DNA of 64,000 nt from Rickettsia typhi (GTDB lineage: Bacteria; Pseudomonadota; Alphaproteobacteria; Rickettsiales; UBA1997). Made by a program: the position numbers and the translations under genes. Each line of letters starts with the position of its first letter. The first letter of the stretch is position 1. Where the stretch lies: the NCBI GenBank assembly GCA_945865905.1, contig CAMBFC010000002.1, forward strand, positions 119,505 to 183,504, given 5' to 3'. The notes beneath the pieces are model-generated. The model ran no database searches, had not been told where the DNA came from, and saw only the letters and a list, made by a program, of their open reading frames with translations. Positions 40,808 through 45,149 of this stretch are shown piece by piece.

Positions 40808-42061
40808 CTAAATTTTATTCGCCCTCTCCAAATCCTCATGCTCAAAAGCAGAAGACATCCGCTCAATTTCTTTTTTTCTTAAGTTAAAATTTTTAGCTAC
40901 CTCGCGCCATTTAGCAGTCGATTTTGCAACTTCTTTAATAATTTTATTCGCTTCATTTTTATTTAATCTGAAGTTTTCAGAGACCGAGAGCGCAGTTTCT
41001 AATGAGGCAGAGTTATTATTGAAATCGATTGCAGTCGTTAGGATTCTAGGTTTTATTTCAGTTGGTGTTGGGTTAAGGTCATAAGCGGGAGAAAGTCTCC
41101 AACCCTTTTGGCTTTCATAAAGAAATCCGTGATTACGCAAGTGATCATCCGTATTCGAAATTAACACATTAAAAACTATACGCCTCCATAGTTGCTTCAT
41201 ATCTTCATCGGGTGCTGCTCCATATTGCGCTAAAGCATCAGCAATTTCGAGATAGCTGTGTTGCTCATTATCTCTTGCTTGCAACATGCTCATAGCCGAA
41301 AGAAAAGGAATGCGGATTTTTTTGATCCGATCAAAACGCTTAACAATCAAAACTGGCTTTTTGTTAATTTTTTCTAAACTAAATGAAGGCGTTGTGATTC
41401 CTGCATTTTTTGCCAAAGTCAGAGCAACTGCTTCCCATTTTTCTATTTCAAATTCGTCATCTTTTCTTGGAAATTTCGCAATTGCAAGATTGCCATTTTT
41501 ATCAAGCACTGATGATTTAGGCCTCGCACCTCCAAGAGAAGAGCCGGGAGCTAAGAGTAGCTTTAGGTCTTGAGAATTTTCCTTATCGTCAACAAACTTT
41601 TCCGAAGCAGCAAGAAGTTTTGGCAAATCTATTAATGGCGGGATGGATTGTTTGTCTTTCGGGCTTAAAAAATCACCATCAATTTTTTCAGAAAAACGCA
41701 GCGCACCTTGACGCAATTCATCACTTACACCAAGCAGATAATCAGCTTCACTCAAACTGCGAGCCGTTTCTTTTTCATTTTTTGCGCGTCTGCTTTCAGC
41801 TCTTCGCATTAAAACTCTTCCCCAACGATCAGGTGCAGAATCGCCAATTGCACCAAAAATATCTTGATTAATTCCAGTGTGAAATACTCCCTCAGTAAGC
41901 TTCAAAGCCGGTTCAAGTGCAAATCTCTCAGGATAAACAAGCCAGCTTTTATCATATTCAAAAGAAGCGCTCTCTTTACCTCTTTTGGAGTGAAACCAAA
42001 GTCTGCCAATAAAAATATTATTTTCGCCTAAAGCGATGTGGACAAAAATTTCTCTACTCAT
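40808..42061 (-). CDS. hipA: HipA-family Ser/Thr kinase toxin
   Basis: SFEY N-terminal domain, GSSLGGARPK, IAKFP, NTDDHLRNHGF, LSPAYDLNP. Confidence 0.92.
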   Translation of the reverse strand: MSREIFVHIALGENNIFIGRLWFHSKRGKESASFEYDKSWLVYPERFALEPALKLTEGVFHTGINQDIFGAIGDSAPDRWGRVLMRRAESRRAKNEKETARSLSEADYLLGVSDELRQGALRFSEKIDGDFLSPKDKQSIPPLIDLPKLLAASEKFVDDKENSQDLKLLLAPGSSLGGARPKSSVLDKNGNLAIAKFPRKDDEFEIEKWEAVALTLAKNAGITTPSFSLEKINKKPVLIVKRFDRIKKIRIPFLSAMSMLQARDNEQHSYLEIADALAQYGAAPDEDMKQLWRRIVFNVLISNTDDHLRNHGFLYESQKGWRLSPAYDLNPTPTEIKPRILTTAIDFNNNSASLETALSVSENFRLNKNEANKIIKEVAKSTAKWREVAKNFNLRKKEIERMSSAFEHEDLERANKI

Positions 42062-42383
42062 TTGTTATTGTTATTTTTCTTGATCTAATTCTTTTAGGTA
42101 AATTCTCTTCATCAATTTGTCTTCCAACTAAATCATGATTAGAATCAACTAAATCAGAAATTCTACTTATCATCCCAAGCACAAACAAAACTGATACATA
42201 GTTACCCATTGATGTTGTTGGATCACCTTTTTCAATTTTCGCTAAAGTACCACGCGAAATTCCAGCGCGCTCTGCCATTAATTTAGTTGCAATACGACGA
42301 CGGCGACGAGCTTCAGAAATATCCTCACCAATTTTTCGTAACGCTTTTGTAACCGGAATAGGTAATTCTAATGTATTTTTCAT
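42054..42383 (-). CDS. hipB: XRE-family HTH protein, HipB-like antitoxin
   Basis: ARRRRRI...MAERAGISRGTLAKIEKGDP; overlaps the hipA start by 8 bp. Confidence 0.8.
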   Translation of the reverse strand: MKNTLELPIPVTKALRKIGEDISEARRRRRIATKLMAERAGISRGTLAKIEKGDPTTSMGNYVSVLFVLGMISRISDLVDSNHDLVGRQIDEENLPKRIRSRKITITNE

Positions 42384-42726: not shown

Positions 42727-42753
42727 GGAATGGTTGCGGGGGCTGGATTTGAA
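42727..42753. repeat. att direct repeat within tRNA-fMet
   Basis: Identical to 38697-38723. Confidence 0.93.
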
Positions 42754-42807
42754 CCAACGACCTTTAGGTTATGAGCCTAACAAGCTACCGGGCTGCTCTA
42801 CCCCGCG
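42731..42807 (-). tRNA. Initiator tRNA-fMet (CAT)
   Basis: CGCGGGGTAGAGCAGCCCGGTAGC...GGCTCATAACC...GGTTCAAATCC...CAACCA; C1:A72 mismatch; encoded CCA. Confidence 0.95.
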
Positions 42808-42845: not shown

Positions 42846-44042
42846 TTAGTTTGCTCTAACCTCAATCACCTTATCAATAGCGCGAAGCCTCGCCAAATCT
42901 GCTTCATCGAGCAAATAATTTTCTGGCAATGCAACATTGGCTTTTTTATCACCCATCTCTACCACAAAAATTACTTTGGTTTTTTTAGCAAAACTTGCCG
43001 GCGCCAAAAGCTGTGAAAGCACGGTTTTAGAGGTTAGAATAGGATCTCGTTCTTTAACAAAAATTTGCACTTCACTAAAAATTTTTTTCGCTTCAAGCTT
43101 CTCGAGCTTTTGTTTGTAATGGTCTACGACTGGCGCGGCTTTTGCAAAATTATTGCCAGAAGAATTTTCTCCGCCCTTATTATAATTATTTTCTCCACCT
43201 TTATTATATCCCCCACCCCCGCCAAACCTGCGCTGCGGTTGTTTTTTAATATCCTCAAAAGGCTCTTTTGCCGCCTTCACATTTTTGATAAAATCAGCTA
43301 ATTTTTGCACATCACGAATCAAAATCCGCACCCCCCCATCATCTTTTTTTATCAAACACTCAATCACAACTTGGCTGCCATCAACTAATATATCGCGAGC
43401 GTTGGTAATTATAGCTTCGTCAAAAATCATCGCTTCAAAAATCCCCAGCGGATCAGAAATTGTCATATAGGCAAAACGACCGCGCGGCCCCGATCTGTGC
43501 TTGCTGCCAGCAATTACTCCCGCCATTTTTATCAGATTACTATCTTGCAATTCATCTTTCTCAATCTTCTCAGAGAAGACTACGCCTCGCTTCTTAAGCT
43601 CTAACAAGTGATCATCAAGCGGATGTTCGTTCAAAAAAAATCCAAAAGCATCGAACTCTTTTTGTAGACGCTCTTCCTTTGTCCAATCTGCAACTTTTTT
43701 AAGCTCGGGCTTAGATTTTGCTTCATCGAGAAGCTCTCCAAACATGCTCATTTGATTGCTTGAAGCTTCATCTTTTTTTTGATTTGCGGTGGCTGCAATC
43801 AGCTCAAATGATTCAAAAATTTGACGACGATTATCGGCGATAGAATCTAGCGAGCCAGATTTGGCAAGGGCTTCGATTGATTTTTTGTTTATTGCTTTTG
43901 CATCCATTCTGATTGCAAAATCATGAACATCTTTAAATTTTCCTGCTGATTTTCTTTCTGCAACTGCCGCTTCCATCATGCCCAAACCCACGGCTTTAAT
44001 GCCTCCAAGACCAAATCTGATTGCGTATTTTTCTTGCGTCAT
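42846..44042 (-). CDS. dnaE: C-terminal fragment (about 398 aa) of DNA polymerase III alpha: HhH, OB fold and CTD only
   Basis: AIRFGLGGIKAVG, INKKSIEALAKSGSLD, NQMSMFG clamp-binding motif, EFDAFGFFLNEHPL, MAGVI...FAYMTISD. No PHP or palm domain upstream. Confidence 0.85.
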   Translation of the reverse strand: MTQEKYAIRFGLGGIKAVGLGMMEAAVAERKSAGKFKDVHDFAIRMDAKAINKKSIEALAKSGSLDSIADNRRQIFESFELIAATANQKKDEASSNQMSMFGELLDEAKSKPELKKVADWTKEERLQKEFDAFGFFLNEHPLDDHLLELKKRGVVFSEKIEKDELQDSNLIKMAGVIAGSKHRSGPRGRFAYMTISDPLGIFEAMIFDEAIITNARDILVDGSQVVIECLIKKDDGGVRILIRDVQKLADFIKNVKAAKEPFEDIKKQPQRRFGGGGGYNKGGENNYNKGGENSSGNNFAKAAPVVDHYKQKLEKLEAKKIFSEVQIFVKERDPILTSKTVLSQLLAPASFAKKTKVIFVVEMGDKKANVALPENYLLDEADLARLRAIDKVIEVRAN

Positions 44043-44043
44043 T

Positions 44044-44841
44044 TTATAATACAAAAAACAAGATCACTATTCCAAGCACGATTCTGTAGATCGCAAATGG
44101 CACAAAATTATGTTTGCTAACATAACCAATGAACCATTTTATTACTAAAATTGCCGAAATAAATGCCGCGAGAAATCCCACCAAAATTAGCTCAGCACCT
44201 GAAAATGTAAGATTAGCGTAGTTTTTATAGAGATCATAAAAAGTTGCGGCAGCGATTGTTGGAATCGACAAAAAGAAAGAAAATTCTGTAGCGGTTTGAC
44301 GATTAAATTTAAGCAAAAGCCCACCAATTATGGTTGCGCCCGATCTTGATATTCCGGGAATCATTGCAATTGATTGAAAACATCCAATAGCAAAAGCCTT
44401 GAGCGGCGTAACTTCATCGATGTTTTTAATGTTGGATTTTCTTTCTTTGCGATCAACCAAAATCATCACTGCGCCACCAACAATTAACGCCCAAGCAATC
44501 ACTGCACTTGAAAATAAAACTTGTTTTATAAAACTATGAAAAGCCAATCCCAGAAAGGCCGCAGGCAAGAATGCAATCAGCAAATTCAGCAATAATTTTT
44601 GATTATTTTTTTTGTGAAAATCCACTAATAAAGAAAAAATCCGCACGCGATAAATCACCACCACCGCTAAAATAGCACCAAACTGAATGACAATTTCGAA
44701 TAAATTATTTTGAATAGAATTAAAATCAACCAGCCAAGAAAATAATAAAAGATGCGCGGTTGATGAAACTGGAAGAAACTCGGTGAGGCCTTCAACCACA
44801 CCAGAAGCCATTGCTTTTATGAGATCTGGAAAATAATGCAT
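44044..44841 (-). CDS. uppP: Undecaprenyl-diphosphatase (BacA)
   Basis: GVVEGLTEFLPVSSTAHL, IQFGAILAV, IPGISRSGATI, EFSFFLSIP. Confidence 0.97.
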   Translation of the reverse strand: MHYFPDLIKAMASGVVEGLTEFLPVSSTAHLLLFSWLVDFNSIQNNLFEIVIQFGAILAVVVIYRVRIFSLLVDFHKKNNQKLLLNLLIAFLPAAFLGLAFHSFIKQVLFSSAVIAWALIVGGAVMILVDRKERKSNIKNIDEVTPLKAFAIGCFQSIAMIPGISRSGATIIGGLLLKFNRQTATEFSFFLSIPTIAAATFYDLYKNYANLTFSGAELILVGFLAAFISAILVIKWFIGYVSKHNFVPFAIYRIVLGIVILFFVL

Positions 44842-44887: not shown

Positions 44888-44973
44888 TGGTACCTCCGAT
44901 CCGAATCGAACGGACACATCCTAGGGATAATAGATTTTGAGTCTATCGCGTCTACCAATTCCGCCACAGAGGC
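44888..44973 (-). tRNA. tRNA-Leu (CAA)
   Basis: GCCTCTGTGGCGGAATTGGTAGACGCG-ATAGA-CTCAAAA-TCTAT, long variable arm, GTTCGATTC, terminal ACCA. Confidence 0.95.
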
Positions 44974-45120: not shown

Positions 45121-45149
45121 ATTATAAGGGGGGCGCGGCTAAAAGTCAA
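45121..45149 (-). promoter_or_regulatory. sigma70 promoter for tRNA-Leu, possibly also uppP, dnaE-C and tRNA-fMet
   Basis: TTGACT-N17-TATAAT followed by a GC-rich discriminator (CAGCCTCCCC). Confidence 0.7.

Follow-up and report, generated by a model that had tools for sequence, protein, structure and literature searches.

The dnaE gene, which encodes the catalytic alpha subunit of DNA polymerase III (Pol III), the essential chromosomal replicase of bacteria, is divided into two unlinked genes in a large clade of freshwater Rickettsiales. To our knowledge, Pol III alpha is regarded as a single chain, apart from the cyanobacterial form that is rejoined by an intein. The window analysed here, a stretch of 64,000 nt (contig CAMBFC010000002.1, positions 119,505-183,504, assembly GCA_945865905.1; coordinates below are window positions), contains only the gene for the C-terminal part, designated dnaE-C, and its N-terminal counterpart, dnaE-N, lies elsewhere in the same genome. 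Two genes, exact complementarity of their products, lack of an intein, a single origin, clade-wide conservation and purifying selection were all observed, and the clade thus carries a genuine, ancient and intein-free fission of its replicative polymerase gene. With a probability that we place at about 0.8, this is an old, fixed gene fission whose products, alpha-N and alpha-C, are made separately and associate non-covalently as a two-subunit alpha, the association and the joint function being what we infer from the genes.

The dnaE-C gene is an intact open reading frame (ORF) of 405 aa when measured from stop to stop and of 398 aa from the ATG at 44042. Its product matches just the C-terminal third of DnaE, with the helix-hairpin-helix (HhH)/clamp-binding domain first, then the OB fold and lastly the C-terminal domain, and a Pfam scan found only HHH_6 and the OB fold. 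An initial reading made from the letters of the window (hereafter the sequence-only reading) had proposed that only the last 398 or so residues of DnaE are encoded, in an undamaged ORF equipped with a clamp-binding motif, an OB fold and a C-terminal domain. This description was borne out by the two Pfam domains, the alignment of the QMSMF motif and a distinct domain at residues 305-398 of the structure model (Table 1). The same reading placed the ATG one base after the stop codon of a complete uppP, and the letters do run ...GTA TTA TAA A ATG ACG CAA GAA AAA..., giving the junction TAA-A-ATG and a protein that starts with MTQEK-YAIRFGLG; its end coordinate, 44046, had to be corrected to 44042, as it took in the uppP stop codon. 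This 1-nt spacing suggests that the translation of dnaE-C is likely coupled to that of uppP. Across 73 orthologues, 43 positions of dnaE-C are invariant, including Q97 of the clamp motif, in which M98 and F101 are conserved in at least 90% of the sequences.

The missing part of the enzyme was identified in the remainder of the genome, a 98%-complete draft of 1.49 Mb in 21 contigs. Here, dnaE-N is an intact ORF of 842 aa located on contig C14, with PHP (PF02811, E 2.2e-38), polymerase core (PF07733, E 8.6e-100) and fingers (PF17657, E 2.7e-67) domains; the catalytic-aspartate motifs PDFDIDF and KFDFLG can be read directly in its translation, which ends with ...PPSLNESEAYFSIEAIN followed by a stop codon. 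After this stop, mfd, a 1193-aa ORF named from sequence homology and from its conservation in relatives, starts after a single nucleotide, so that the dnaE-N/mfd junction has the same 1-nt form as the uppP/dnaE-C junction. The sequence-only reading had called for a search for such an N-terminal ORF and for any full-length dnaE. The latter was not found by PF07733 and half-gene searches, which returned a single PF07733 match genome-wide, namely dnaE-N, and no second copy of the C part either. DnaE is therefore not encoded as one polypeptide of about 1150-1250 aa but by an 842-aa ORF on one contig and a 398-aa ORF on another. The genome also holds dnaN, dnaQ and dnaX. On contig C14 (4148-14182), the gene order is atpH-atpA-atpG, a 253-aa ORF, dnaE-N and mfd, the atp genes having been named by eye; the 253-aa ORF has no Pfam match and is conserved upstream of dnaE-N within the genus, and the fact that atpD and atpC do not follow atpG suggests a local rearrangement.

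Taken together, the two products cover the sequence of alpha almost without a gap. In NF004226, the DnaE equivalog profile of 1146 positions, dnaE-N covers positions 6-818 and dnaE-C positions 820-1127, with scores of 1190.6 bits (passing alone the cut-off of 1002) and 185.8 bits, respectively. Alignment with E. coli alpha led to the same picture, residues 2-837 of dnaE-N corresponding to 6-824 and residues 8-248 of dnaE-C to 831-1073. The break thus falls at about E. coli residues 825-830, in the loop between the fingers and the HhH/clamp-binding domain, with only some 5 residues at the end of dnaE-N and some 7 at the start of dnaE-C left unaligned. Neither alignment revealed intein-sized extra sequence in either half, as the sequence-only reading had noted for the C part, and with so few residues unaccounted for at the break no intein halves would fit.

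The distribution of the split was examined by searching each half against 40 relatives. The dnaE-N frame measures 827-879 aa in 16 genomes of the family, ending 2-6 residues past YF.[IV]E, and the dnaE-C frame measures 385-422 aa in 14 genomes, starting a few residues before AIRFGLG; the new termini vary in sequence and length among genera. Simple contig breaks are excluded by two genomes in which both halves lie far apart on one contig: 74 kb apart in G017, and 8 kb apart in G021, where dnaE-C precedes dnaE-N on the strand. A name-bearing scan of species-representative genomes gave 80 loci, all with a short C-part frame (376-452 aa) and all from freshwater metagenome-assembled genomes (MAGs) labelled Rickettsiales or Alphaproteobacteria, including UBA1997 and UBA2645. 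In about 70 of these 80 loci, uppP lies upstream of dnaE-C, and its stop codon falls within -13 to +11 nt of the dnaE-C start in 58 of the 72 complete loci. In one species (CANEUK010000066.1; L074:2-3368), dnaE-N and dnaE-C are adjacent and divergently transcribed, with starts about 150 bp apart and no uppP upstream of the C part. A 96%-identical gene occurs in three assemblies of independent origin, one each from NCBI (a MAG), from Logan (a run assembly) and from ENA, and the two that extend upstream as far as uppP have the same uppP/dnaE-C junction. Such C parts make up 377 clusters in public databases, where they go under "DNA polymerase III alpha subunit" (JGI) or "hypothetical protein" (NCBI). 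The freshwater family UBA1997 has been described as epibionts of cryptophyte algae in a preprint that does not mention dnaE and that places the peak of this family in spring blooms of cryptophytes (10.1101/2023.01.31.526412).

At the level of the whole family, 126 species genomes were searched, of which 115 had a match and about 88 a short frame. The split was found in 11 genera (g1, g2, g4, g6, g9, g10, g12, g14, g15 and g17, and g16 via its N part), and six others (g3, g5, g7, g8, g11 and g13) have unsplit frames of 1205-1383 aa. Long dnaE frames were also found in sixteen other families of the order and, when 300 further Alphaproteobacteria were sampled, in nearly all of the approximately 150 matches that were listed. 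The three shortest frames of that sample (G345, G214 and G257) were examined, and none of the three established a second split lineage; seven others on the list measured 755-1012 aa, and 131 matches lay outside it. The sequence-only reading had suggested a search for the split in sister MAGs, and it proved to be clade-wide. In a maximum-likelihood tree of the N region, all 15 split sequences fall on one side of a branch with support 100/99 and a single change is required, indicating that the fission occurred once and persisted; meanwhile, dnaE-C has diverged to 41-43% identity. The loop that was cut (YF.VE to ELAIRYGLG) comprises about 25-40 residues in the unsplit genera of the family versus about 10 in outgroups, an expansion that probably made it a permissive site. 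Synteny was uninformative as to how the fission arose, the flanks of the relatives' unsplit dnaE being scattered on other contigs and not beside uppP or mfd.

Several other short or interrupted dnaE frames were considered and set apart from the split described here. In G345 and G214, a contig end truncates what is a full-length gene. An apparent split in family f2 (G025:C2; L035:7560-7720) is due to a scaffold gap of 10 N that causes a frame change, a case illustrating that open-frame lengths alone can mislead. In an unrelated alphaproteobacterium with a 5.3-Mb genome (G257, C13; L133:3231-6713), dnaE is full-length except that a single in-frame TGA falls exactly in this loop (...FTVETGE*GIAIRYALAAL..., where the asterisk is the stop). 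Its congener has an uninterrupted frame of 1161 aa, and G257 itself has a second PF07733 gene (1410-aa frame); the TGA could be a sequencing error, a read-through codon or an incipient split.

Both halves are under strong purifying selection, like the neighbouring genes. Against a 96%-identical relative from an independent assembly, the ratio of nonsynonymous to synonymous substitution rates (dN/dS) was 0.060 for dnaE-C, with 0.066 for uppP, 0.037 for queF and 0.067 for mrp. Comparison with the congener G004 gave 0.076 for dnaE-C, 0.055 for dnaE-N and 0.124 for uppP, and comparison with another congener, G007, gave 0.081 for dnaE-N. The sequence-only reading had called for a dN/dS test, and relaxed selection was seen in neither half (0.06-0.08 for C and 0.055-0.08 for N).

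An AlphaFold2 model of dnaE-C built with 73 sequences (mean predicted local distance difference test score, pLDDT, 84) predicts a helical HhH region, an OB barrel, a disordered linker and a confident C-terminal alpha/beta domain. The best Foldseek matches of this model are full-length Pol III alpha chains (4IQJ, 7PU7, 2HPI, 3E0D and 5FKU, with E values down to 5e-13), and its alignments extend over about 390-395 columns of the full-length Taq or E. coli alpha, with a global template modelling (TM) score of 0.40-0.45 that is modest because the domain orientations differ. With regard to tau binding, residues 305-398 occupy the right position, and Foldseek aligned about 395 columns to the Taq alpha/tau-C complex, with a global TM of only 0.40-0.45.

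In the genome of the window, DnaX has 419 aa (C6:24103-25359; L129:1372-2631, minus strand) and consists of domains I-III and a short conserved tail, matching the alphaproteobacterial gamma/tau model at positions 24-407 of 616 only. DnaX frames of about 410-490 aa occur in all genera of the family, with dnaE split or not; those of nearly all other families of the order measure 517-639 aa, and one family has 404. On the basis of these sequences, the usual tau C-terminal region, which binds alpha and DnaB, seems to be missing family-wide. A search of the genome with PF12170 (tau domain V) returned one stop-riddled match of 14.7 bits, the model having matched only 3 of 14 control genomes.

Under the explanation that we favour, dnaE was split in an ancestor of this clade by a break in a surface loop, after the fingers and ahead of the HhH/clamp-binding domain. 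Encoded upstream of mfd, alpha-N (842 aa; PHP, palm, thumb and fingers) carries the active site of the polymerase together with a PHP domain that, as in E. coli, would bind epsilon. The 398 residues of alpha-C include the HhH region that binds duplex DNA and the internal clamp-binding motif, followed by the OB fold and a C-terminal domain that is putatively of the tau-binding type. As the sequence-only reading had proposed, the two chains would be translated separately and then bind non-covalently to form a functional alpha, with neither protein nor RNA splicing. Some observations weigh against this scheme. The C part contains one in-frame TAA in 3 of about 88 family genomes (G003, G118 and G087; Table 1), which could reflect assembly errors or occasional decay or inactivation. 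The last strand of alpha-N (YFSIE) may, to judge from the sequence, pair with the first strand of alpha-C (YAIRFGLG), but residues 1-10 of the dnaE-C model are of low confidence, so that this supposed pairing across the break receives no support from the model. Lastly, DnaX is short and devoid of the usual tau C-terminal region, which makes the partner of the alpha-C C-terminal domain uncertain. In a variant of the scheme that is possible but unlikely, alpha-C would be a free-standing processivity adaptor that remains attached to the clamp, to DNA and to the clamp loader, and on which catalytic alpha-N cores bind and exchange; if this modular arrangement were true, the cell could produce alpha-C along with uppP and alpha-N along with mfd, each in its own amount.

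It is quite unlikely that no stable alpha is formed at all, alpha-N acting alone as the polymerase and alpha-C as an accessory factor (an adaptor for the clamp, the DNA or the clamp loader) that is transient at the fork or serves another process. The truncation of E. coli alpha at residue 917 does yield a folded, crystallisable polymerase (PDB 2HNH and 2HQA, both matched in the present searches), no added dimerisation segment is apparent at the new termini of alpha-N or alpha-C, and the lack of the tau C-terminal region in DnaX throughout the family points in the same direction. Yet alpha-N ends about 90 residues short of the E. coli 1-917 construct, and is therefore without the HhH domain and the clamp-binding motif, while every canonical motif is kept in dnaE-C at a dN/dS of about 0.06 and the two genes co-occur in almost all genomes searched. 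Processive replication is reported to be impossible without the internal clamp motif (Dohrmann and McHenry 2005), which also speaks against this reading.

The absence of spare protein sequence, together with gene ends that abut their neighbours within 1 nt, makes it very unlikely that the halves are covalently joined by an unrecognised route, be it a tiny or atypical split intein, another form of protein ligation or mRNA trans-splicing. Such a route would have a precedent, since in cyanobacteria, the only known case of a naturally split dnaE, a split intein restores the single chain (PMC5054071), but the break there is situated about 77 residues closer to the N-terminus, the residues unaligned at the present break number about 12 in total and vary in sequence and length among genera, and there is no room for intron halves, the mfd and dnaE-C start codons each lying 1 nt past the preceding stop. 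That the split is an artefact of assembly or binning, or that dnaE-C is a fragment of a pseudogene in decay, is extremely improbable. Even though the genome is a draft of 21 contigs, and a run of N in a scaffold did create one apparent split elsewhere (G025), the same architecture recurs in at least 80 independently assembled species genomes with clean ORF ends abutting intact genes; artefact and decay are further contradicted by the halves that share single contigs in G017 and G021, by dN/dS values of 0.05-0.08 and by the lack of any other dnaE in a 98%-complete genome.

In the window, dnaE-C probably belongs to a transcription unit that would run from a promoter-like site through tRNA-Leu(CAA), uppP and dnaE-C to tRNA-Met(CAT) (Table 1). 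Just downstream of tRNA-Met, at 40808-42383 on the minus strand, is a toxin-antitoxin-type pair consisting of a helix-turn-helix (HTH) protein (109 aa) and a HipA-like kinase (417 aa). The pair also occurs in the 96%-identical relative, where Pfam identified HTH_3, Couple_hipA and HipA_C; the dN/dS of hipA was disregarded owing to a poor alignment at 29% identity.

Table 1. Features of the split dnaE and of its surroundings (window positions unless a contig is given).
Feature	Position	Strand	Remarks
dnaE-C, encoding the C-terminal part of Pol III alpha as a separate 398-aa protein	42846..44042	-	stop codon 42846-42848
HhH/clamp-binding domain, residues 4-74 of dnaE-C	43821..44033	-	PF14579 (HHH_6), E 6.1e-19; E. 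coli alpha residues 831-905 in the alignment
Internal beta-clamp-binding motif QMSMF, residues 97-101	43740..43754	-	aligned with the E. coli 920-924 motif
OB fold, residues 174-248	43299..43523	-	PF01336, 28.4 bits (cut-off 27); strands 169-247 in the AlphaFold2 model
Gly/Asn-rich disordered linker, approximately residues 274-304	43131..43223	-	pLDDT <50; gapped in alignment; lengths vary among orthologues
C-terminal alpha/beta domain, residues 305-398	42849..43130	-	pLDDT about 90; located where canonical alpha has its tau-binding domain
Junction TAA-A-ATG (stop of uppP, a single intervening base, start of dnaE-C)	44040..44046	-	read in the sequence
uppP (undecaprenyl-diphosphatase, BacA family), conserved upstream partner	44044..44841	-	PF02673, E 1.7e-83
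tRNA-Leu(CAA), head of the probable transcription unit	44888..44973	-	
Promoter-like site TTGACT-17-TATAAT, 11/12	45121..45149	-	consensus match only
tRNA-Met(CAT), directly 3' of dnaE-C	42731..42807	-	
dnaE-N, intact 842-aa ORF	contig C14, 7731-10259	-	PHP, DNA_pol3_alpha and finger domains
dnaE-C frame with in-frame TAA, G003	C49:5279-6499		
dnaE-C frame with in-frame TAA, G118	C28:2393-3517		
dnaE-C frame with in-frame TAA, G087	C34:689-1813		

The existence of about 90 or more species with two unlinked, intein-free genes suggests that in nature the catalytic core need not be covalently tied to the processivity module, which binds the clamp, DNA and tau. The break offers a natural cut site for engineering a split or modular Pol III, and the split permits direct tests of what the tether contributes to processivity and polymerase exchange. 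It also has consequences for annotation, as some of these proteins are named "hypothetical protein" by NCBI, and in these genomes dnaE may be miscounted by pipelines that estimate completeness or rely on marker genes. More broadly, the fission of dnaE may be one case of a lineage-wide tolerance for the splitting of essential multidomain genes.

Full-text literature searches returned no report of an intein-free split dnaE, but only the cyanobacterial intein case and splits of family-B polymerases. As in the Rickettsiales, the cyanobacterial DnaE (Synechocystis/Nostoc; NF007079 and NF005616) is one enzyme derived from two distant genes, both halves of which are required. In contrast to the present case, in which no intein halves occur, the cyanobacterial products carry an N-intein of about 100-123 aa and a C-intein of about 36 aa. 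Positions 34-105 of NF005616, the model of the cyanobacterial C half, correspond to residues 765-836 of dnaE-N, which places the break of the Rickettsiales about 77 residues closer to the C-terminus. While the cyanobacterial halves are ligated, the Rickettsiales product is expected to remain as two chains, and the two lineages are unrelated.

The closest analogues of the proposed mode, with two genes and non-covalent reassembly, are found among family-B polymerases. According to a passage in PMC3061061, the PolB of Methanothermobacter thermautotrophicus is encoded without an intein by two genes 85 kb apart and is active by reassembly (citing Kelman et al. 1999), and the gp43 of some T4-like phages is likewise split without an intein into fragments that reassemble to an active enzyme (citing Petrov et al. 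2006, 2010). These enzymes are not homologous to the family-C alpha, and they are split inside the fingers or the palm, whereas alpha is split between its catalytic core and its processivity module; their reconstitution was shown biochemically, whereas the split of alpha is known here from its genes. The canonical single-chain DnaE1 alpha (E. coli 5FKU/5FKV, T. aquaticus 2HPI/4IQJ and M. tuberculosis 7PU7) has the same domains, in the same order, as alpha-N followed by alpha-C. As in DnaE1, the catalytic and clamp-binding motifs are kept, and the two chains cover the equivalog profile end to end; unlike DnaE1, they stem from two unlinked genes, so that one chain ends after the fingers and the other opens with the HhH domain. 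Judged by its domains, the enzyme is thus an alpha of the DnaE1 type that clearly departs from it in just one feature, that of being a single polypeptide.

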